NCBI GenBank assembly: GCA_005239895.1
Contig: SBBB01000002.1
Span: 1 to 50,298, forward strand
Length of the DNA: 50,298 nt
Reading direction: 5' to 3'
Source of the DNA: a bacterium
GTDB taxonomy: Bacteria > Patescibacteriota > Patescibacteriia > SBBB01
The position numbers were made by a program, and so were the translations under genes. Shown piece by piece: positions 7,923 through 45,910 of this stretch; the first letter of the stretch is position 1; every line of letters starts with the position of its first letter. The notes below the pieces were generated by a model. It worked only from the letters and a program-made list of their open reading frames with translations. It had not been told where the DNA came from and ran no database searches.

Positions 7923-7985
7923 TAGCTTGTAGCTTGTAGCTTGTAGCTTGTAGCTTGTAGCTTGTAGCTTTTAACTTTTAACTTT
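7923..7985. repeat. Heptamer array (TAGCTTG)6-TAGCTTT-(TAACTTT)2 immediately upstream of the ATPase start
   Basis: Read directly from sequence. Confidence 0.92.
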
Positions 7986-7988
7986 TTT

Positions 7989-20944: not shown

Positions 20945-21050
20945 TAGCTTGTAGCTTGTAGCTTTTTAGCCCTTCAGGTTTAAGACCTTCAGAGTCTTCG
21001 ACTTTTTAATCCTTCGGGTCTAAAACCCTCAGGACCTTCGGCTTTCTAAC
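20945..21050. repeat. TAGCTTG heptamers plus CCTTC(A/G)G-rich dispersed element
   Basis: Shares CCTTCGG.TCTAAAA and ACCTTCGGCTTTCTA with 48338-48408; similar motifs at 45848-45900. Confidence 0.65.
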
Positions 21051-21052
21051 TT

Positions 21053-22237
21053 TTAACTTTCTACTTGTTTGCAACCCTGAAAAACTTTCAAAGTTTCACG
21101 AGCTGTTCTTTCAAATGTAAACTTGGCTGAACGTTGCAAACCAGCTGTACTCATTATTTGTCTTAACTCGGAATTAGTCAATAATTCTTGCATAGCCAGG
21201 GTTAGTTCTGAAATATTATCGGGATTAATTAATATTCCCGCAGAACCAACAATTTCCCCCAAACTAGATGAAAAACTAGATATAACTGGCACTCCATAAC
21301 TCATAGCTTCTATAACTGGCAAACCAAACCCTTCATAATAAGATGGAAAAACAAATAGCTCTGCGCCTTGATATAATCTAGCTTTGTCTTCTTCCGAAAC
21401 ATAATTTAAAATCCAAATTTTATCTACTAAACTCAACCCTGCGGCCTGAATGGCTTGCAAAATTTTTGTATAACCATAACCAGGATGACCAACTAAAATT
21501 AAGATTAGGTTTTGATTAGGATTATCTTTCATAATCTGTTGAAAAGATTTTATGATTGAAATAATATTTTTCCGCATTTCTAAAGTTCCAAGATATAAAA
21601 TATAATGCTCAGGCAAAACTTTTCCATTACAGACAACCCTAGTATTTATATCTTTGCGAACAGATTGCGCGCCATGATATATAACTGTAATTTTATTTTC
21701 TGGAATTCCTAAATAATTAATAATATCCGTTTTACTGCTTTCCGAAACTGTAATAATTTTATCAGCCTGCAGGCAAGTTTTTTTTACATTTACTAAATAG
21801 TGCTTTAATCTGTTTTTTAAATTATAAAATTCAGGATAAATTTTAAAACTTAGATCATGAATTGTAATTACACTATGTATTTTTTTATTGTGAGCGTTAC
21901 CAGAACCAGCCAGTGCTAAAAAAGAAAGATTAGGGGAAAAAACAACATCAGGCCGCAGGTTAAAACGATGATAAATTAAATCCGGCATACTTGGATAATT
22001 AAAACCCAAAATACTTAAATTTAATAATTTATTGGGAATATGATAGTCGCATACTTGCACTTTCGCGGATCCAAAATCAGGCAAAATAGGATAATTGTTT
22101 TTATAAGAATTATAAAATAAGTAATACTCGTTTTCTAAGTCCAACTTAAACAAACATTCTAGTAAATTATAAGTATACTTTGAAACCCCAGTTCCATATT
22201 TCTCTAAAAGAGGACTAACATCTACAACAATACGCAT
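21053..22237 (-). CDS. Glycosyltransferase family 4 (GT-B)
   Basis: GTGVSKY, TIHDL, LYLGTLEMRKN, FPSYYEGFGLPVIEAMSYGVPVI. Confidence 0.94.
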   Translation of the reverse strand: MRIVVDVSPLLEKYGTGVSKYTYNLLECLFKLDLENEYYLFYNSYKNNYPILPDFGSAKVQVCDYHIPNKLLNLSILGFNYPSMPDLIYHRFNLRPDVVFSPNLSFLALAGSGNAHNKKIHSVITIHDLSFKIYPEFYNLKNRLKHYLVNVKKTCLQADKIITVSESSKTDIINYLGIPENKITVIYHGAQSVRKDINTRVVCNGKVLPEHYILYLGTLEMRKNIISIIKSFQQIMKDNPNQNLILILVGHPGYGYTKILQAIQAAGLSLVDKIWILNYVSEEDKARLYQGAELFVFPSYYEGFGLPVIEAMSYGVPVISSFSSSLGEIVGSAGILINPDNISELTLAMQELLTNSELRQIMSTAGLQRSAKFTFERTARETLKVFQGCKQVES

Positions 22238-25552: not shown

Positions 25553-25594
25553 CTCAGTAATAACCCTTCGACTACGCTCAGGGTCTACACTCCT
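25553..25594 (-). promoter_or_regulatory. Shared upstream motif, copy A (AGGAGTGTAG-hairpin-GTTATTACTGAG)
   Basis: Matches 34608-34642 on the same strand relative to the downstream gene; ends 11 nt before the wcaJ-like ATG. Confidence 0.5.
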
Positions 25595-25632
25595 ATTTAT
25601 CTCAAGAGCAAGCTCTTGAGCTTTCTAGGAGT
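25589..25632. other. Large hairpin 3' of RNase P RNA (ACTCCTA/TAGGAGT enclosing CTCAAGAG-CAAG-CTCTTGAG)
   Basis: Read directly from sequence. Confidence 0.7.
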
Positions 25633-25644
25633 TTCGATAAAAAT

Positions 25645-26034
25645 GCATTTTAAACTTATAAGCCGAATTCTGTCTCCTTGTAAAAACAAAGAGTGTAATC
25701 ATCTATCTAGCTTTAATATTACTATTAAAGTCAAGCCCCAATTAAGGGTTGCACCAAATAGGGTTTGCCACACATTGACATCACTGCCAACGGAGCGAAG
25801 TAGCTATAAATTTATAACACCTTCCCACTTTTCACCTTTCACTATTTAAATAAATTTAAACAGCTAGTATAGTCTCTGTGGTACTAATGCCGTCGTTTTA
25901 TGTATCGTAAAACGCCACTGCGTTACAGTGTATTATTTACCATTCTTTAATATATATGATATACTAAAGGGGCGCGGTGTTCGGACTTTCCTCCCCTTTA
26001 ATTAAAAAGGGGCGATTACACAGTATTAAAATGC
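25645..26034 (-). ncRNA. rnpB: RNase P RNA
   Basis: Reverse strand contains GAGGAAAGTCCGAAC, AGTACCACAGAGAC, GGTGAAAAG, GGCAAACCC..GGTGCAA, CTAGATAGATGATT and ACAGAATTCGGCTTAT; P1 GCATTTTAA/TTAAAATGC. Confidence 0.94.
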
Positions 26035-29251: not shown

Positions 29252-29299
29252 AGAAGCTAAGAAGCTAAGAAGCTAAGAAGCTAAGAAGCTAAGAAGCTA
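29252..29299. repeat. Octamer array (AGAAGCTA)6 in the prfA 5' UTR
   Basis: Read directly from sequence. Confidence 0.92.
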
Positions 29300-29308
29300 A
29301 ATTCTTAT

Positions 29309-30375: not shown

Positions 30376-30405
30376 AAAAAGCCGCGAATAAATCACGGCT
30401 TTTTT
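30376..30405. terminator. Bidirectional intrinsic terminator between prfA and the S-layer-like gene
   Basis: AAAAA-GCCGCGA-ATAAA-TCACGGC-TTTTTT. Confidence 0.8.
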
Positions 30406-30450: not shown

Positions 30451-33400
30451 TTACTGATAAAGCAAAAACTTTCCAGTAACTATATAAGAATCAGAAATAG
30501 TAAGATCGCCAGAAGGAGAATTATCAGCTGTTCTCTTGTATGACCATGTAAGAGCGTTATCAGTAGCAGTAGAAACAGCTTTGGCACCTAACATACGGAC
30601 AAGGGTAGTAGCAGTTGTTCCAGTAGTAGAATTGTTCTTGATATTAGTCGTATCAGCTAACAATACATAACCATTGGTTCCATTAACAGCAATTTGTTCA
30701 TTGGTAGGTAATGTAAATTCAATAACCTGACCAGATGTAACAATAGTTGTATCGGCCAATGTACTTGTAGCACCAACAAGCATTGCTCCAGCTAATGAAG
30801 TTGATCCACCTAAAGTGTTAGAAATTCTATCACCTGTGGTAGGATTAGCTCTATCTAATCTAAACCTCTTAGGACCAAAACCACTTGCGTAAGAACCAGA
30901 AATCTCAAATCTCATTTTAACCGGAGTAATAGGTTGAGATCCAACTGTGCTAACTGTAAAGGTTCCAATAGCATTCTCAATGACTTGAGCACCAGTGCCA
31001 ACATCTTTGGATGCTAATACAGGCTTGGTTTCTTCAACATGATGAGCTTCAGATGTAAATGTAAAGTTGGTTATACGGCCACCTGCAACGAAACCAGCTT
31101 TCGTAGTTCTGTTTATACCAGTTAAGGTAATGGTATTTGTACCAACTGAAGCGACTGTAACAGCTGCTTCAGAAGCACCATCTACAGTGTCAGTGAAGAC
31201 ACCATTATTATTGTAGTCAAAAGCAACTGAATCACCTACTTCAAAGTTAGTAACATCATTAACAGTAATAGTGTCAGTAGTTGTTGGAGTTTCATCGTAA
31301 GCTGTGACAATACCACCAGAAACTCTATTTGTGCTTCCCGAAGATACTCCGGTAAACTCAAGATAGGTTACACCCATAGTTACATCTCTATCAGCAGACG
31401 CACCAACAGGAATAGTTGCTCCACTGGGTGTTGATACTTTAACTACAAGATTTTTTACTCCACCTTGAGGAATACTGTAACCTAAACCAGTAAATCTAAC
31501 TTCGCTACCAGTTAAGGAAGCTGAAGAGGTGTTTAATTGTTTACCTGAATCAGCGTCAAATAACTTGTAAGAATCAGCTAAATTATTATTACCGTTTTTA
31601 ATACCTAGATATAATTTATCTAAGGTTAGAGGTTCAGCATTTAGGGTTTCCCTTAATTGGAATTTAAAGGCTGAAACATCAGTCTCATTAGCAGCTAATA
31701 ATTTGGCAACATTAATAATTCCATCTTGTCCTAAAGATGTAACAGCTAAGTTACCGGCTGATTTTAGAGCAATGCTCTGACCAATAACAGCTGGAGATAT
31801 AGTTGTAGATTGAGAACTGCTTCCTACAGATGAGGTTACAGTTAACTCGGTTCCAATATTATCTTTACTAAAGGCTGTATTAACAACAGCGTACACATTA
31901 ACTACTTTAGTTCCATTAACTGGAATACTCAAACCTGCAACGGAGAAAGTAAATCCAGAAGCAGTACCAATTGTGTTAGCTGGAGCTAAAGACACGCCAG
32001 CTGAATCTTTTAAGGTTATATTACTGACATTTTGCAAGTCAGTAACTGCTGTGCTATCAAATTCAGCAGTAGTGTCAACAACTGATCCTGTAACAGCACC
32101 AACTCTAATTTTAATAGCATTAATAGCCTGTCCTTCAGCTGCACCAGCTCTTAGGGTGTATGATCCTATTTTTTGCAATGATCCACCCTTTACCAAATTG
32201 GTTGGGTTGAAATCAGATGCTTTGCTTACGGTTAAAGTAGAATCATCTACGGCTAAGTTATTACCACTAGCTAAATCAGTAGTAGAGCCACCAGTAGTAA
32301 CAAAGTTATTTGAAGATACTCTTCTAACTTTAAAACTGGTAATTCTAATTGTGTAATTATCAGCTCCCGTAGCATTCTGGTTAATATCACCTACAAAAGT
32401 AATAGTACCAGTTGTGCCAGATTTTATGGTGTAGAAACTGTTCAAAACATGCTGAGTTCCATTACCATCTGGAGCAGTAGAACCACTAATTGTGTTATTA
32501 GTTACTGTAAAGGAATTAGCACCATAAATATTACCATCCGTAGCAGTCTGGGAGTAAATATTACCTCCAGTTGCGGATTGTATTTTTAAGGAACCATTCA
32601 ATACAAATCTACCTACTGCCAATCCAGCCGAAGAGCTACGAACTACAAATCCTAATTCTTGCAATTCAATATCTTCGCCAAAAGCTTGAATATTGAATTT
32701 AGCTAGATTGACATTTGTGGCACCTTTCACAACTTTGCCAGACAAAGATTCAGTTGATCTAGAAATAGTAACTGTACCTTCTCTAAATTTAACAAAGTTG
32801 CTTCCAGTGTCACCATCTCCAATTGGATAAGTTTGTCCAGTATCTTCAGCAGGGGTTACACCAACTCCAGTTTCAAGACCAACAGCGCGGATTTTGTAGT
32901 CGTTCTGAATAGTAAAGTTTAAGGTTCTATTGGCGCTATTAGTATTGCTGGCTAAGTCAACTTTGACTGTAAAGTCTCTTAATTGACCATTCAAAATTTT
33001 ATAACCACCAGTAGGACCAGCCATTGTACCTGTTAATCCAGAAATATTGAATTTGGCTTCATTGTTTATCAAAGTAGGAACTGAAGCAATGACAGCATTG
33101 CTTTGGTCAACTAATCTGATATTCATAACATCACCACCTGAAGCGCTACCATTGTTTTGAATGGTGATATTTGTTAACTCAAGGTCTTCATTGCCAGTAA
33201 TTTCTTGTAATCTAAATTTAGCAACATCAACATCTTTTAGACCTTGATCTAATTCAATAGGAGCGGCTGATGTACCACCAATAATGGTTCGGGTGGAAAC
33301 ATTTAATTTACCAATGGCTCCAGTTCCAGAAACCGTAGTCATAGTAGAACCTTTAATTGGGAAACTACCTTCTACCTTAATAGCTGTTCCGCTAGAATCT

Positions 33401-34527
33401 GTAACTGTAACATCGCTAGCCGCAGCAATAGTTGCGGAAATTGTTCCAGAATTTGTAATTGTTTTTAGATTAACATTTACATTTACATCAACGGTTTGAC
33501 CGGACGCAATTTTAATTGGTTCGTTTTCAAATCCGCTATTTGCAATAGACTGACCAAATGTAACTAATGATCCGTGCAATTTGCCCATTTTATCTGTAAT
33601 TAAAATACCAGCTATATCAGCGTCAGACGCAATACCCTCTCTTCTAATAACTAAACCTTTGACTAACGCATCTCCGCTGGTTGTATTTTTAACAGATAGA
33701 GTAAGTAAGGGCGCGTAAAAAGATCCGCCTGGAATTGCACCGGCACCTTTGGTGCTAGGTGACAAAGCCACGGTAACACCTCCGGTCATTACAACTGGTG
33801 AAGATGAACTACTAGCTGAACCACCTAAATCTGTAAGTTTGGATTCTTTGCCAGTAATATCAGTTCCAGCTGTTGCAGTCCAAGAAGAGGGTGCGGTTAC
33901 AACATACATAGAATTAAAACCATTATCAGCTAAAGATGTTCCTGTAAATTTGCGAATATTCTTGCCATCTACTAAGTAAACATCTGAACTGCCTGTCATT
34001 TTAACTAAGGTACCAGATGGATAACCACTGGCTGCTGATACTGCTGTGGAATCTATTTTATAATTAGTAAAGAAAGAATCAGCAACATCAACTACCATTG
34101 AAGCCCATCCAGCTCCATATAATGTTTTGGCTGTAGCTTCGCTATCAATGTGTCTTAATACTCCGCCTGGTTCAACAGCGTAAACTTTAGGATCAGTTGT
34201 AATTTTAACTAACATCGTACCTGGTCTAATGGTAACATTTCCTCCCAATCCGTAAGACTGTAATTCAGTAGCTGAAACAGTTTTTACGCCTGAGAAATCT
34301 TTGTACCAAGAGTTATAAGTACTGGAATTAGGAAAAACCCAGCGCTTGCCATCAGCTCCTAAGTAGTAAACAGTGCTCAAGCCTGGCATTTTGATCAAAT
34401 CTCCAGCCATGGCTGCTTTCGTAGCCAAAGGAAGAAAGATCGCTGTACCCATGGTTGATAGAACTGTGGTAATACTTACAACTGTTGCAATCGCGCGCTT
34501 TCCTGTATTCATTAATTTGTGCGACAT
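30451..34527 (-). CDS. Giant secreted S-layer-like surface protein (1358 aa)
   Basis: Signal peptide; N-terminal LIK..STVYY..ADGKRWVFPN / LVKITTDPKVYAV repeat domain; long Thr/Ser/Gly/Val-rich beta-sandwich-like repeats; strongly biased codons. Confidence 0.85.
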   Translation of the reverse strand: MSHKLMNTGKRAIATVVSITTVLSTMGTAIFLPLATKAAMAGDLIKMPGLSTVYYLGADGKRWVFPNSSTYNSWYKDFSGVKTVSATELQSYGLGGNVTIRPGTMLVKITTDPKVYAVEPGGVLRHIDSEATAKTLYGAGWASMVVDVADSFFTNYKIDSTAVSAASGYPSGTLVKMTGSSDVYLVDGKNIRKFTGTSLADNGFNSMYVVTAPSSWTATAGTDITGKESKLTDLGGSASSSSSPVVMTGGVTVALSPSTKGAGAIPGGSFYAPLLTLSVKNTTSGDALVKGLVIRREGIASDADIAGILITDKMGKLHGSLVTFGQSIANSGFENEPIKIASGQTVDVNVNVNLKTITNSGTISATIAAASDVTVTDSSGTAIKVEGSFPIKGSTMTTVSGTGAIGKLNVSTRTIIGGTSAAPIELDQGLKDVDVAKFRLQEITGNEDLELTNITIQNNGSASGGDVMNIRLVDQSNAVIASVPTLINNEAKFNISGLTGTMAGPTGGYKILNGQLRDFTVKVDLASNTNSANRTLNFTIQNDYKIRAVGLETGVGVTPAEDTGQTYPIGDGDTGSNFVKFREGTVTISRSTESLSGKVVKGATNVNLAKFNIQAFGEDIELQELGFVVRSSSAGLAVGRFVLNGSLKIQSATGGNIYSQTATDGNIYGANSFTVTNNTISGSTAPDGNGTQHVLNSFYTIKSGTTGTITFVGDINQNATGADNYTIRITSFKVRRVSSNNFVTTGGSTTDLASGNNLAVDDSTLTVSKASDFNPTNLVKGGSLQKIGSYTLRAGAAEGQAINAIKIRVGAVTGSVVDTTAEFDSTAVTDLQNVSNITLKDSAGVSLAPANTIGTASGFTFSVAGLSIPVNGTKVVNVYAVVNTAFSKDNIGTELTVTSSVGSSSQSTTISPAVIGQSIALKSAGNLAVTSLGQDGIINVAKLLAANETDVSAFKFQLRETLNAEPLTLDKLYLGIKNGNNNLADSYKLFDADSGKQLNTSSASLTGSEVRFTGLGYSIPQGGVKNLVVKVSTPSGATIPVGASADRDVTMGVTYLEFTGVSSGSTNRVSGGIVTAYDETPTTTDTITVNDVTNFEVGDSVAFDYNNNGVFTDTVDGASEAAVTVASVGTNTITLTGINRTTKAGFVAGGRITNFTFTSEAHHVEETKPVLASKDVGTGAQVIENAIGTFTVSTVGSQPITPVKMRFEISGSYASGFGPKRFRLDRANPTTGDRISNTLGGSTSLAGAMLVGATSTLADTTIVTSGQVIEFTLPTNEQIAVNGTNGYVLLADTTNIKNNSTTGTTATTLVRMLGAKAVSTATDNALTWSYKRTADNSPSGDLTISDSYIVTGKFLLYQ

Positions 34528-34607
34528 AATTTTATATTAAATATTAAAAAAATTAAAACTAAAAAACTCACCGTAGAAACCTGTTATAATATAAAAGTTT
34601 TTAAGCT

Positions 34608-34642
34608 CTCATAAATAACTCGACCTTCGGTCCTACACTCCT
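34608..34642 (-). promoter_or_regulatory. Shared upstream motif, copy B (AGGAGTGTAG-hairpin-GTTATTTATGAG)
   Basis: Matches 25553-25594; preceded on the sense strand by a 13-bp hairpin (34645-34685). Confidence 0.5.
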
Positions 34643-34726
34643 CTTGTTAGTTTCCAATCCACAAAACCCATTTTAGAAACTAACATAAAAAGCTAGTAAC
34701 TTAAAATCACCTCGGACTTATTAAAC

Positions 34727-35950
34727 TTATAAATTATTATCATTATTAGTTGTGGTGCCCGTGCTCGTACTACTAGTAACATCCGGAGTTGGTGTCAAAA
34801 CGTCAATTCCACTGTTTTCAACCTTGGCTTCCATAATATCAACAATATCTTGACTAGCACCCAAACTATCTATAGCAGCCACATAATCTTTGTCTTGCAA
34901 ATATTTTTTCGCTTTAGTTAGATTTTCTGTAGCTTCTTTAGAAGTATCTTTAACTCCCTGAAGTTCAGTTTTATCAATAACAGTTGTTGATACACTAAGT
35001 AAACCAGATGACGTAGTTGCAGCAACCTCTAAACCAGCAGTTGCAATCTTATCTAATTTTTTAATTTTGTTTTCTGTAGATTGAATTTTATCAGTCACTA
35101 AAACCGTCAAATCTTCTTCTAAAGCGCTACTTACTTTACTACCAACCTCTTTATTAGAATCAATATCAGATGCCATGACTTTCAAGGCCACACTATTCAC
35201 TTTCACGGCTGTTTTTATAACTTTATTAACAGCTAAAGCAGCTGGTTTTTCTTTGTTGATTAAAGCTCGTTTGGTGTGATTTAAACTAACTGTGTAACCA
35301 TGAACTTTCTTTTCAATAATTTTAGCCACCTCGGTTCTCCTAGGACCATCACTAATAGAATTCAAAGTATTAATAGCTTGAGTTGTTTTTAATAACTCGT
35401 CTTCTAGTCGCATGGCAGCCTGAGCAATATTATTATCATTTTCATTTCTATTATTTTGAATCGATAACATTTTAATTTCATTAAACCTAGTGTCAGCTAT
35501 GGCTAATTGTTTAATAATCTTAACCTGCTTATCAGAAGTTGCGATTAAATCTATTTTTTCTAACGCTAATTTTAAACCATGCAATTTATCGCCCGGTAAA
35601 CTTGCTCGACTCGCGTCCGCGATTAAAAAACCTGATCCACCTAGCATTACTAACATTAACGCAACACTCACCAAAGAATAATCCATTAATATACGCTGAT
35701 ATCTTAAGAAAGCTAATTTACCTATTTTAAAAATATAATCCACATTTTCTAAAGTGTCGTTGCGAATAAAAAACCATTTACTATTTTCGAGATTAATTTT
35801 ATTAATTTTGCAAACCGGAATACCAACTTGAGCTTGAATTTGACAAATGAGAATATCACGATTGCTCTTCTTCCATTCAACTGATGGTTGAAGATTATTT
35901 CTAAGGGATTCTAATTGTTTAATAATATTTCTTTTGGTTACATTTTGCAT
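34727..35950 (-). CDS. DUF5667-like membrane protein, putative anti-sigma factor
   Basis: N-terminal LxxLRxxxQPSxEW segment, TM helix, ASLPGDKLHGLKLALEKI...QLAIADTRFNE motif; directly downstream of an ECF sigma. Confidence 0.75.
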   Translation of the reverse strand: MQNVTKRNIIKQLESLRNNLQPSVEWKKSNRDILICQIQAQVGIPVCKINKINLENSKWFFIRNDTLENVDYIFKIGKLAFLRYQRILMDYSLVSVALMLVMLGGSGFLIADASRASLPGDKLHGLKLALEKIDLIATSDKQVKIIKQLAIADTRFNEIKMLSIQNNRNENDNNIAQAAMRLEDELLKTTQAINTLNSISDGPRRTEVAKIIEKKVHGYTVSLNHTKRALINKEKPAALAVNKVIKTAVKVNSVALKVMASDIDSNKEVGSKVSSALEEDLTVLVTDKIQSTENKIKKLDKIATAGLEVAATTSSGLLSVSTTVIDKTELQGVKDTSKEATENLTKAKKYLQDKDYVAAIDSLGASQDIVDIMEAKVENSGIDVLTPTPDVTSSTSTGTTTNNDNNL

Positions 35951-35963
35951 AACCTCTATGAGA

Positions 35964-36005
35964 ATTTAAGATTTAAGATTTAAGATTTAAGATTTATGAT
36001 TTAAG
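35964..36005. repeat. Heptamer array ATTTA(A/T)G x6 in the 5' UTR of the DUF5667 gene
   Basis: Read directly from sequence. Confidence 0.88.
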
Positions 36006-36034
36006 TTCATCAAGCTAGCTTTTAGCTGTCAAAA

Positions 36035-36063
36035 ACAATAGTAGACTTTAACTTAATTGTCAA
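36035..36063 (-). promoter_or_regulatory. sigma70 promoter for the DUF5667 gene, TTGACA-N17-TATTGT
   Basis: Perfect -35, 17-nt spacer. Confidence 0.6.
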
Positions 36064-36074
36064 GGGTATTATTG

Positions 36075-36671
36075 TTAAATATTTTTTTGAGAAGAATTTA
36101 TAATTCGGCGCAAAGCATTAATAGCTCTATGTATGGTTACTCTCACACCAACCTTACTTTTATTTAGAATTCTTGCCATGTCAGCAATAGAGATATTATC
36201 AATATAACGCAAAACAATTACTTCACGGTATTCGTCTTTCAATATTTTTAAGCTATCTTGTATAGCTTGAAGTGATTCAAAAGATGACGACTTAAATAAA
36301 TCTCCGGCTGGTTGGTAGGATTGCGAAAATGGTAAATTATCAATCTCATCAATATTTTCATCAAACTTTATTTCTCCACTTTTTTTATATTGATTGCGAT
36401 AAAAATCCATCACAACATTCTTCGAAACTGTGTAAGCAAAAGCTTTGATATTTCTAATTGGTTGACCTTGTTTATTGTTCAGAATATACTCCCATATCTT
36501 AAGAAAAACTATAGAAGTTAAATCTTGGCTAGTCGTAGCATCAAATACCTTAAAGTAAATAAACTGGTAAATCTTCTCAACATACTGATCATAGAAAAGA
36601 CCAAAAGCTTGCGGGTCTTTGTTCTGAAGTCCAAGTATAATTTTATCGTCTTGAAAAATACTTACTGACAT
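36075..36671 (-). CDS. ECF-type RNA polymerase sigma factor
   Basis: AFGLFYDQY..KIYQFIY...SQDLTS.VFLKIW (region 2); LKDEYREVIVLRYI...IARIL.KS...VRV.IHRA (region 4). Confidence 0.93.
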   Translation of the reverse strand: MSVSIFQDDKIILGLQNKDPQAFGLFYDQYVEKIYQFIYFKVFDATTSQDLTSIVFLKIWEYILNNKQGQPIRNIKAFAYTVSKNVVMDFYRNQYKKSGEIKFDENIDEIDNLPFSQSYQPAGDLFKSSSFESLQAIQDSLKILKDEYREVIVLRYIDNISIADMARILNKSKVGVRVTIHRAINALRRIINSSQKNI

Positions 36672-36676
36672 AAATA

Positions 36677-36704
36677 TAGACGCTAATAATGGTCAAATGT
36701 TACA
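36677..36704 (-). promoter_or_regulatory. ECF-type promoter TGTAAC-N16-CGTCTA upstream of the ECF sigma gene (leaderless)
   Basis: Matches the tGtAAC-N16-CGwC ECF consensus; ATG follows 5 nt after CGTCTA. Confidence 0.7.
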
Positions 36705-36766
36705 GATAATAATAGTTAAATATACGCTTATAATACCAATATGTCCAGGTAACAAGATGCTATAAG

Positions 36767-36794
36767 ATTTATGATTTATGATTTATGATTTATG
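36767..36794. repeat. Heptamer array (ATTTATG)4 upstream of the ECF sigma gene
   Basis: Read directly from sequence. Confidence 0.88.
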
Positions 36795-36926
36795 ATTTAA
36801 TTAAAGATATATAAATAGTGCCTTTGTTTATACAGTATTTGCAATATAGTACCTAACCGAAAAAGTTACAGTTAAATTATTATTTTATAAAAACTGTAAC
36901 ACTAGTATTAAATATTAAATTAAAGA

Positions 36927-37928
36927 TTAATATTTAATATTCTTGAGAATTGTGTCTAATTTAGCGTCAATTGTTCTTTTTAGTTGAGCTGGGTTAAGTA
37001 AGTTATAAATCTGCTGCAACTCTTGTTTAATAGACTGAGAAGCAGTGTTCAGTTCTATTATTCGACTATAAGGAGTCTTGGATATAACATCACCTTTTTT
37101 ATTAATTCGTAACAAGGCTTGAAAAAAATTATGATACAACCTGAGCTCGTTTTTACATAAACTTAATAGCATTTCTAATTCTGAATCACCCAGGCTTTGA
37201 ACACTATATTTTGGCGTCGAAACCAGAGGTACAAAATCATTAAATTTAATTGATATTAAAACTGGAAACCTTTTATAAATTTTTTCCAAACCTGATTGCC
37301 AAGCTTCTTTAGATTGTCCTTTTATCATTTCTATTTCCCACCAACCTGTCACTGTATCAATGCATGAAATAGCGTTCATGCTCTGACCAGTTATTAATCC
37401 GGATTGATCGCTATGCCCAGCTAAATAGATTTCAATATTTCCAATTTTAAATCTTTCTTGTTTGTAATTAATTCTAAATAATGATTTTAAAACCCTCCAC
37501 ATTTTGCGATGCTGAGTTGGTTTTTGAGCTTGACTTAACACCGAGTCAATTGTTCTTACTCCGACTTGTTTTAATTTTTCAATAACCGTACGATTATATT
37601 TTAACTCCCCAATCCTTTCCAATCTGCCGGTTTCAGATATTAATAAGGGTTGCAATCTTAGACCGCAAGGATAATTAAAAATACTCCAACATTCAAGTAG
37701 CGCTTTTTGAAATACAGCGTCGTAATAAACGGGCTTAATTCTTTTTTGAACCTCCATATTTTCGACACCCAATTCGGATAAATGCTTAAGCTTAGAAATT
37801 AAATATTTCCTATTAAGTTTTAAATCTTTACAAAGTTTATCTAAAAATTTACCCTTATCTTTTTTAGATTTATAATCATATTTAGCATCTTCAAGTGTTT
37901 GCAATAAATGCTCGTTACTTATGGACAT
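36927..37928 (-). CDS. DDE integrase/transposase-derived protein with degenerate catalytic core
   Basis: KGKFLDKLC..L.LNRKYLI, WSIFNYPCGLRL, TIDSVL, CIDTVTGWWE, YHNFFQ..KTPYSR match rve-type transposases; the DSDNGSEF and E-motif segment is missing. Confidence 0.7.
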   Translation of the reverse strand: MSISNEHLLQTLEDAKYDYKSKKDKGKFLDKLCKDLKLNRKYLISKLKHLSELGVENMEVQKRIKPVYYDAVFQKALLECWSIFNYPCGLRLQPLLISETGRLERIGELKYNRTVIEKLKQVGVRTIDSVLSQAQKPTQHRKMWRVLKSLFRINYKQERFKIGNIEIYLAGHSDQSGLITGQSMNAISCIDTVTGWWEIEMIKGQSKEAWQSGLEKIYKRFPVLISIKFNDFVPLVSTPKYSVQSLGDSELEMLLSLCKNELRLYHNFFQALLRINKKGDVISKTPYSRIIELNTASQSIKQELQQIYNLLNPAQLKRTIDAKLDTILKNIKY

Positions 37929-37945
37929 AAATTTATTTTAGGAAT

Positions 37946-37985
37946 TAGCTTTTTAGCTTTTTAGCTTTTTAGCTTTTTAGTTTTT
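37946..37985. repeat. Octamer array (TAGCTTTT)4 plus one variant upstream of the transposase-derived gene
   Basis: Read directly from sequence. Confidence 0.88.
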
Positions 37986-38103
37986 TAAACTAGAAAGTAT
38001 TTTATTTAACATTTTCCTTACTTCAACCAACAATGCATCGAAATGATATTATTTTCTAACATACTTCTCCTAAGAAGCTACAAGCTAAGAAGCTAACAGC
38101 TAT

Positions 38104-45767: not shown

Positions 45768-45910
45768 TTGGGAACTAGGAATTAACTTGTAGCTTATTAG
45801 CTTTTTAGTTTGTTACTGACTACTTGTTACTTTTTGGCGCTAAAGCACCTTCAGTTCTATAATTTTAAATTACGGACTTTCGGTCATAAAGGACCTTCAG
45901 TTTTTTATTT

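Follow-up and report, generated by a model that had tools for sequence, protein, structure and literature searches.

In Bacillus subtilis, the pairs of an extracytoplasmic function (ECF) sigma factor and its anti-sigma factor are expressed from autoregulated promoters of the AAC...CGT type. A second well-described pair, sigma-BldN/RsbN of Streptomyces, has been classified as ECF121 (Casas-Pastor et al. 2021; PMC7826278), and the structure of its complex is available as 6DXO (PMC6101532). RsbN has three sigma-binding helices, one transmembrane (TM) helix and an outside domain of 272 amino acids (aa), and is not similar in sequence to other anti-sigma factors; BldN targets the promoter of rsbN and drives the expression of the coat genes, those for chaplins and rodlins (PMC6101532). 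Here we describe a locus that resembles this pair in several respects. It lies in a stretch of 50,298 nucleotides (nt), referred to below as the window (assembly GCA_005239895.1, contig SBBB01000002.1, positions 1 to 50,298), from a member of the Patescibacteriia with a genome of 0.83 Mb that is about 98% complete. The locus contains the gene of an ECF sigma factor, the gene of a DUF5667 membrane protein, a structured RNA element and the gene of a giant secreted protein, flanked by the housekeeping genes prfA, rpmE, rpsB and tgt. What is new here is an ECF sigma/anti-sigma unit, its anti-sigma factor a candidate, assembled from uncharacterised parts. A preliminary description of the same DNA, made from the sequence alone, had listed four co-oriented genes, the fourth being a dead transposase, and all four were recovered on the minus strand (Table 1).

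The sigma gene, the DUF5667 gene, the RNA element and the giant gene form a cassette that is conserved across a class of Patescibacteria. Two sets of relatives, which carry the names Candidatus Falkowbacteria, Uhrbacteria, Parcubacteria or Patescibacteria group, were compared. The first, sigma-anchored set consists of 16-kb stretches around the best sigma orthologues in 20 genomes of one class, each from a different family. The gene immediately 3' of sigma encodes a DUF5667 homologue in 18 of these 20 genomes, and a homologue of the giant gene comes next in 15. The five loci lacking the latter are cut by contig ends, one of them showing the N-terminal domain of the giant protein (hereafter N-domain) at the contig edge, and the order is complete in 15/15 loci with enough sequence. 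For the second set, public genomes were searched with the N-domain alone, which gave at least 582 loci, and the best 80 were examined. A sigma orthologue is found upstream on the same strand in 69 of these 80; a DUF5667 protein with a single TM helix is encoded between sigma and giant gene in 68 of the 69, the remaining locus being interrupted by a run of N. Among the 11 loci without sigma, eight have less than 2 kb of upstream sequence. In addition, a strong sigma match (E <= 1e-25) is present in 27 of 42 genomes with the N-domain and in one of 18 genomes without it, that one being a contig end (60 genomes in all). The preliminary description had made its proposal depend on a conserved linkage to surface genes, and both sets bear this linkage out. 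Some loci contain additional genes: an open reading frame (ORF) of 250-280 aa without TM helix lies between the DUF5667 gene and the leader or giant gene in L082, L096, L115, L120, L134, L143 and L144, and small membrane-protein ORFs lie between the sigma and DUF5667 genes in L104 and L132.

Table 1. Positions of the cassette, its neighbours and related sites (window coordinates unless a locus is named)
Feature	Position	Strand	Remarks
Giant secreted surface protein	30451-34527	minus	1358-aa ORF
Structured RNA element	34570-34685	minus	Spacer between DUF5667 gene and giant gene
DUF5667 membrane protein	34727-35950	minus	407 aa, candidate anti-sigma
ECF sigma factor	36075-36671	minus	198 aa; ATG at 36669-36671
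ECF-type promoter TGTAAC-N16-CGTC	36679-36704	minus	-35 = 36699-36704, -10 = 36679-36682
Intrinsic-terminator-like hairpin	30376-30404	minus	3' of giant gene; 12-bp stem AAAAAGCCGTGATTTATTCGCGGCTTTTT + T-rich tail
Second TGTAAC-N16-CGTA site, perfect	L152 546-571; L153 498-523; L154 505-530 (reverse strand)		Overlaps Mur-ligase stop codon
Decayed rve-type (DDE) transposase ORF	36927-37928	minus	333 aa; neighbour, outside cassette
Sigma-70-like consensus match TTGACA-17-TATTGT	36035-36063	minus	Inside 124-nt sigma-DUF5667 spacer
Heptamer array AAATCAT (minus-strand unit) x4.9	36766-36799	unstranded	62-95 nt upstream of ECF -35
Heptamer array AAATCTT (minus-strand unit) x6.0	35964-36005	unstranded	Between sigma stop and DUF5667 start
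AGCT-unit arrays	2931-2973, 7923-7986, 20945-21063, 29252-29300, 37945-37987, 38070-38102, 45790-45808		

The sigma protein is an ECF (group 4) sigma-70 factor. It passes the Pfam cut-offs for Sigma70_r2 (24.2 bits, cut-off 24) and Sigma70_r4_2 (40.4 bits, cut-off 25.7) as well as that of the NCBIfam sigma70-ECF family TIGR02937 (64.1 bits, cut-off 42.9). The closest solved structure is sigma-BldN (6DXO_A, 1.4e-17), with SigW (5WUQ) as the second PDB match. Meanwhile, the best NCBIfam equivalog is the BldN family TIGR02952, at 104.6 bits and under the cut-off of 206.45, followed by SigX and SigW, and only about 25 residues lie upstream of region 2, with no N-terminal pro-sequence of the BldN kind evident. 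The BldN family is named here as the closest relative of the protein. The whole genome contains two sigma-70-family (Sigma70_r2) genes, a primary-type one (contig C23, 38393-38602) and the ECF gene of the window (domain at 36390-36596); the ECF sigma is the sole alternative sigma factor of the genome.

Directly upstream of the sigma gene lies the sequence TGTAAC-N16-CGTC, with the AAC in the -35 and the CGT in the -10 element that mark an autoregulatory ECF promoter. The preliminary description had noted this promoter and suggested a scan for its pattern; the scan found one match in the window, where 0.07 are expected, and no other in the whole genome. In addition, a weight matrix was built from 14 orthologous sites, the window site being left out, and placed the window site at the top of the genome with 21.5 bits, the maximum on the reversed sequence being 18.2. 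A second match above the control (contig C19, 10166) lies inside an ORF of the opposite strand and was taken as chance. Of the 20 sigma orthologues, 15 have the pattern (G/C)TGTAA(C/T)A-N15-CGTC with the same spacing to the ATG, followed by seven A/T-rich bases without Shine-Dalgarno sequence. Transcription from ECF promoters begins a few bases past the -10 element. Since the -10 element ends 7 nt before the ATG, the sigma mRNA is probably leaderless or nearly so.

The position of the promoter within the cassette follows two patterns. When the zone from 200 nt upstream of sigma through the start of the giant gene was counted, a single perfect TGTAAY-N15-17-CGT(A/C) was found per cassette in 66 of the 69 N-domain loci with sigma, and the reversed control gave none. 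In type A (34 loci, the window among them) the site precedes the sigma gene with the 7-nt spacing; in type B (32 loci) it lies at the end of the sigma gene, just before the DUF5667 gene, with the TAA stop codon of sigma inside TGTAAC. Both types are upstream of the DUF5667 gene, the spacer and the giant gene, and the region upstream of the giant gene itself is free of ECF-type sites in 76 of 77 loci. Many of the type-B loci (n=32) have a GC hairpin and CCCGTTATTTTTTGTT directly before the start codon of the sigma gene; this arrangement, seen in L077, L084, L088, L091, L092, L094, L103, L109, L121 and L123, has a terminator- or attenuator-like look.

The apparent regulon is tiny and envelope-related, with one to two sites per genome and here the cassette alone. 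In 61 genomes the strict ECF pattern barely exceeds the reversed control, and a large regulon was rejected on this ground. In eight type-B genomes TGTAAC-N16-CGTA has 14 matches, compared with two in the control, and four of these genomes have the cassette site only. Three others of the eight, of the Falkowbacteria type, carry a second site with the same T-rich spacer (Table 1), located between a Mur-ligase gene and a row of genes for an ABC exporter (ABC_membrane and ABC_tran domains), murB and alaS. This row is likely a second target of the sigma factor in the three relatives, which makes an envelope theme plausible; no second site of the ABC exporter-murB kind was found in the present genome. 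Because the sigma factor must have some output and no other site was found here, the giant gene is the natural candidate for it.

The product of the gene downstream of sigma scores 23.5 bits against the DUF5667 family (PF18915) by hmmscan, with a cut-off of 27, and 32.8 bits in a six-frame search of the genome, and all 26 aligned orthologues match PF18915 (best 5.7e-18). We read the window protein as a divergent, true member of the family. A word-based search with the protein gave one distant match, and iterated hidden Markov model searches of the fetched loci were used instead. The conserved N-terminus of about 40 aa follows the pattern ELLKQLNxLKxIKPDxxWKKxNREILxxQI and is predicted to form helices at 6-19, 24-29 and 31-41. 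It is followed by a variable linker, one TM helix (about aa 87-105), the core PGDSLYxxKxxxE... and an all-helical outside domain of about 300 aa that ends in a conserved helical hairpin. W26, L34, Q37, I38, P119, E131 and A152 are invariant in the alignment of orthologues. An AlphaFold2 model of the protein has a predicted local distance difference test score (pLDDT) of 81, and Foldseek searches with it returned generic helical repeats only, with nothing at E <= 0.001. The predicted layout, i.e. a short cytoplasmic helical N-terminus, a single TM helix and an outside domain, encoded next to a sigma gene, is that of membrane anti-sigma factors. The short cytoplasmic N-terminus with its invariant Trp is, apart from the DUF5667 core, the most conserved stretch of the protein, which indicates a cytoplasmic partner. 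Overlap of the sigma and DUF5667 genes, or a gap of at most 60 nt between them, is seen in 42 of 68 relatives; an apparent natural fusion of the two in L111 turned out to be a run of N in the record. The adjacency of the genes and the topology of the protein fit the ECF sigma/anti-sigma-type pair of the preliminary description, and we infer that the DUF5667 protein is a candidate anti-sigma factor of the ECF sigma.

The giant protein has a predicted signal peptide (aa 1-41) with cleavage between AMA and the invariant G42. The mature protein (135.8 kDa, pI 5.3) contains no Cys and consists to 52% of T, G, S, V and A, a composition that fits a surface coat or fibre protein. Its N-domain extends from aa 42 to about 235 (33823-34404) and is much better conserved between families (56-79% identity) than the rest of the protein (23-33%). 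Of 151 class genomes, 106 encode the domain, with 1-12 copies each and on proteins of 180-1900 aa; the present genome has one copy. As a module shared in this way, it would most simply serve as a wall or surface anchor. No Pfam match to the N-domain was found up to E 10, and no sequence relative in PDB; the whole 1358-aa protein has no match in Pfam or NCBIfam. More than 1100 homologues exist, every one annotated as 'hypothetical protein' and without a Pfam domain. In an AlphaFold2 model of aa 1-640 (pLDDT 85) the N-domain is of mixed alpha/beta type and beta-sandwich domains come after it; the part of the protein beyond the N-domain is probably a string of immunoglobulin (Ig)-like beta-sandwich domains. 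The top Foldseek matches of the model are the C-terminal Ig-like domains of antigens I/II (AgI/II; AspA, BspA, SpaP), PrgB, integrin legs and Cna-type adhesins. S-layer proteins have been reported in Patescibacteria by a preprint. The giant protein, which the preliminary description had called S-layer-like, has no homology to known S-layer proteins and no SLH, CWB2 or LPXTG motif, and its fold matches arrays of Ig-like adhesin domains; S-layer identity is a hypothesis. Before the start codon of the giant gene (34528-34545) the sequence reads TTTAATATAAAATTATG and contains no Shine-Dalgarno-like sequence, while the orthologues mostly have AAGGA 12-17 nt upstream.

The spacer upstream of the giant gene contains a conserved AAGGTCG box, located at 34621-34627 in the window. 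When about 60 spacers were folded with the box kept unpaired, nearly all gave the same P2/bulge/P3 core: the helix P2 of 8-9 bp closes a 5' bulge, NNN-AAGGUCG-A with nothing opposite, and stacks on P3, a hairpin whose length varies. Four sequences were used to build a covariance model; the 29 sites that it found at E < 0.01 are without exception located before a giant gene and on its coding strand. In the model-based alignment 96.5% of the cells are paired and 13 of 15 pairs show compensatory changes, values that none of 500 shuffles equalled and that compare with 35-49% paired cells in slid controls; an alignment fitted to a model leans towards the structure, and the independent minimum free energy folds of the roughly 60 spacers are consistent with it. 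Eight genomes have one copy of the element each. Rfam gave nothing at E <= 1 for the window spacer or for six related loci. Alignment of the raw spacers with MAFFT and RNAalifold recovered only the hairpin P1 described below, because the length of P3 varies.

The copy in the window is minimal, with a simple hairpin P0 (34645-34685), the P2/bulge/P3 core (34570-34639) and the bulge G-AAGGUCG-A. It was identified by constrained folding because the RNA model R2, too specific to the Falkowbacteria-type loci (it found 2 of 61 diverse genomes), missed it. The Falkowbacteria-type loci have a larger structure, in which the hairpin P1, AAUCCGC...GCGGAUU, is part of the RNAalifold consensus; a long-range helix P0, GUUAGUUUAUCUCC...GGAGAUAAAUUAAC, was seen by eye only and is absent from that consensus. 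A sigma-70 promoter, CTATCA-17-TAAATT, considered before hairpin P1 was rejected, its bases being one strand of helix P0. According to RNAalifold, the ACC that ends P2 can pair with the GGU of the AAGGUCG box, and P3 together with the following U-rich strand of P2 scores as terminator-like. For these two reasons it is conceivable that the leader RNA acts as a switch or attenuator. Similar motifs were seen elsewhere in the genome. The window leader shares AGGAGTGTAG(G)ACC...TTATTAxTGAG with the spacer 25560-25625 (-), which lies before a gene at about 25530 (-) and just after the RNase P RNA (bacterial class A, Rfam RF00010, 130 bits, at 25643-26031 (-)). A second AAGGTCGAGTTATTTA is present on contig C26 at 16206 (+), upstream of an ORF for a 272-aa membrane protein. 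These AGGAGTGTAG/AAGGTCGAGTTATTTA sites may be related elements before other envelope genes.

Taken together, we regard it as rather probable that the cassette is a control unit, in which the sigma factor and a DUF5667 inhibitor gate the giant surface gene through co-transcription and the leader RNA. The N-terminal helical tail of DUF5667, about 40 residues long, would hold the sigma factor at the membrane as RsbN holds sigma-BldN, until the long helical outside domain senses a wall or coat signal and the sigma factor is freed. The free sigma would then use the sole TGTAAC-N16-CGTC promoter, and a leaderless sigma mRNA made from its own promoter would give positive feedback. The transcript would most likely continue through the DUF5667 gene, which would give negative feedback, and through the leader RNA into the giant gene, the presumed real output of the module. 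Read-through is considered most likely because no terminator was seen before 30376; on the minus strand, none was found between 36671 and the hairpin at 30376-30404. The giant gene is thus most likely linked to the sigma factor by co-transcription and the new leader RNA, without a second ECF promoter. Through processing, stabilisation or attenuation, the AAGGUCG-bulge RNA would probably determine the amount of giant-gene mRNA that is completed or persists.

Several findings weigh against this reading. The DUF5667 protein matches neither zf-HC2 nor RskA nor any other anti-sigma family of Pfam and contains no HxxxCxxC motif; its profile has no sequence relative in PDB, no anti-sigma factor among them, and no similarity to RsbN(1-91); and its N-terminal segment is modelled with low confidence (pLDDT 65-74). 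The sigma and DUF5667 genes are 124 nt apart in the window, unlike the usual tight coupling. Target promoters of divergent sequence may have escaped the weight-matrix and pattern scans. Very high expression would be expected of a main coat protein, and an anti-sigma-gated promoter is a poor fit to this. Finally, the three Falkowbacteria-type loci examined have terminator-like hairpins and weak (9/12) sigma-70-like matches between the DUF5667 gene and the RNA, so that an independent promoter of the giant gene is conceivable there.

Lacking a recognisable anti-sigma domain or PDB relative, the DUF5667 protein could be a membrane-anchored helper of assembly, anchoring or secretion, and the sigma factor a dedicated, essentially unregulated activator of the coat operon. 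The long helical outside domain could serve as a scaffold, and the gene always stands directly before the giant gene; the family is absent from 14 model genomes and finds no mention in the literature searched. However, the conserved cytoplasmic N-terminus with its invariant Trp points to a cytoplasmic partner, and RsbN is matched in gene order, in an often overlapping sigma gene and in the three-helix, one-TM and outside-domain layout. We consider a helper role very unlikely.

The demand for high expression and the possible promoters in the Falkowbacteria-type loci lead to another explanation, in which the giant gene is constitutive, driven by its own housekeeping promoter before the leader, and the sigma/DUF5667 pair monitors the coat or wall. 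The outside domain of DUF5667 would perhaps contact the giant protein, the pair would act on itself alone and, in certain genomes, on wall-synthesis genes as well, and the linkage would reflect co-evolution rather than co-transcription. A strong constitutive promoter suits a highly expressed coat protein better; the giant gene has a long spacer of 200-1300 nt upstream of it; and the ABC exporter-murB genes stand behind an ECF-type site in three genomes. Nevertheless, the 199-nt spacer of the window contains no sigma-70-like match of 9/12 or better on the minus strand and no terminator, the sigma factor of this genome would target merely itself and its inhibitor, and the sequences first read as a promoter before P1 belong to the RNA helix P0. 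This constitutive arrangement is unlikely in our view.

A further proposal concerns the spacers around the sigma gene in this genome. According to the preliminary description, the anti-sigma gene has a separate sigma-70 promoter and related heptamer arrays lie upstream of both genes. On this basis, a local addition can be imagined in which its own sigma-70 promoter uncouples the anti-sigma from the sigma factor, and the AAATCWT arrays are regulator sites or slippage-prone, phase-variable tracts that tune the ratio of the two. The match TTGACA-17-TATTGT, with 10 of 12 consensus positions, indeed stands in an unusually long spacer of 124 nt, and the two related arrays flank the sigma gene, with no other arrays of either the AAATCAT or the AAATCTT unit in the genome. 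However, the region has no excess of sigma-70-like matches (45, with 36 +/- 7 expected), i.e. they occur at chance frequency, and most relatives, their sigma and DUF5667 genes abutting, have no counterpart of TTGACA-17-TATTGT; the claimed separate promoter comes down to a consensus match. Regarding the arrays, the units are real and related, as described, but have no positional counterpart in the relatives, which have short arrays elsewhere. Exact arrays of 6-9 bp with at least four copies number 15 in the genome, all intergenic and six of them in the window, most being AGCT-containing octamers, and short arrays are accordingly a general habit of the spacers of this genome. In addition, a period of 7 bp is unfit for the helical phasing of a repeated protein site. 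No variation in copy number was seen; the sole other public (Logan) contig is identical to the window and starts and ends inside arrays, one of them the AAATCTT array, and so is uninformative on copy number and phase variation. We attach little credence to a local addition of this kind.

Many intergenic spacers of the window are filled by AGCT-containing units of 7-8 bp (TAGCTTG, AGAAGCTA, TTAGCTTT, CTAAGAAG; Table 1). Some of these arrays form imperfect inverted pairs, for example 38070-38102 and 37945-37987, and arrays of the AGCT type flank GC hairpins in the relatives L024 and L031.

The 333-aa ORF upstream of the sigma gene is a decayed transposase, a chance neighbour outside the module. 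Its homologues are about 413 aa long, 36-41% identical to it, many with PF00665 (rve), and are mostly found on contigs of 1.3-2.5 kb; insertion sequences commonly sit on such short contigs. The ORF has Tyr at the position of the first catalytic Asp, about 80 aa that include the second Asp (in a DSDNG motif) and the Glu block are gone, and the C-terminus is shortened. It has no Pfam or NCBIfam match, lacks the intact Asp, Asp and Glu of PF00665 transposases, and is single-copy in the genome. The preliminary description was thus right to call the transposase dead. It had also counted a transposase-derived DNA-binding protein as a possible part of the module; no homologue of the ORF was found beside the sigma gene in about 100 related loci examined, and the remnant is therefore placed outside the module.

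Returning to the control unit, a wider version of it can be drawn, in which the cassette is a self-contained coat homeostat of many Patescibacteria, DUF5667 an unrecognised class of membrane anti-sigma factors whose helical outside domain reports the completeness of coat or wall, and the AAGGUCG leader a new class of cis-regulatory RNA switch. The ACC at the end of P2 would have two alternative GGU partners, one in the box and one in the 3' strand of P2, and the terminator-like P3 with its U-tract would be exposed or hidden, gating the giant mRNA. This wider version is speculative and we would be surprised if it held as a whole. Ultra-small bacteria have almost no regulators, and in this genome of 0.83 Mb the sole alternative sigma factor is tied, class-wide, to one giant surface gene. 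The linkage points to the outer surface, which is also the interface with the host, as what such cells most need to control; the episymbiont lifestyle and the surface remodelling envisaged in the preliminary description are conjecture. The parts are worth attention in themselves: a minimal ECF promoter with a presumably leaderless mRNA, an uncharacterised DUF5667 family, an undescribed N-terminal domain and a single-copy RNA whose bulge is invariant. Should the giant protein indeed be the coat seen by cryo-electron microscopy (cryo-EM) on such cells, both its gene and its control circuit would now have a name.

In comparison with described systems, the leader RNA resembles those of coat and polysaccharide operons (long S-layer mRNA leaders with a stabilising effect; antitermination leaders of the ops/JUMPstart and LoaP types) in being a gene-specific fold upstream of a very long surface gene, and it resembles a terminator in that P3 is followed by a U-rich strand, the U-tract being hidden in P2. 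In contrast to the known leaders, the AAGGUCG element has no Rfam family, and we know of no described counterpart of its invariant bulge. The giant protein shares with the anchored surface proteins of Gram-positive bacteria (SLH/CWB2 S-layer, AgI/II and Cna-type proteins) a secretion signal, a conserved terminal module and a variable beta-rich remainder; it is like the AgI/II, PrgB and Cna adhesins in fold, and is acidic, Cys-free and rich in Thr, Ser and Gly. It differs from them in an N-domain without Pfam or PDB match and in the lack of SLH, CWB2 and LPXTG. The sigma factor is similar to those of the B. subtilis pairs sigma-W/RsiW and sigma-X/RsiX and to sigma-M in size, two-domain build, the downstream gene for a membrane partner and the envelope theme, whereas the pair described here has no zinc-binding anti-sigma domain, one to two sites per genome instead of tens, and an mRNA that appears to be leaderless. 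The likeness to sigma-BldN/RsbN has its own limits: the sigma factor scores 104.6 bits against the 206 bits of the BldN family and has no evident pro-sigma extension in its 198 aa, DUF5667 has no sequence similarity to RsbN(1-91), the mRNA is probably leaderless, and the output would be a single giant gene, located in cis and preceded by a structured RNA, rather than dispersed chaplin and rodlin genes. Nevertheless, sigma-BldN is the closest solved sigma factor; the partner in both cases is a single-pass protein with a three-helix N-terminus and a large outside domain, as predicted for DUF5667; the partner gene is under an ECF promoter; and the output in Streptomyces consists of secreted coat proteins.

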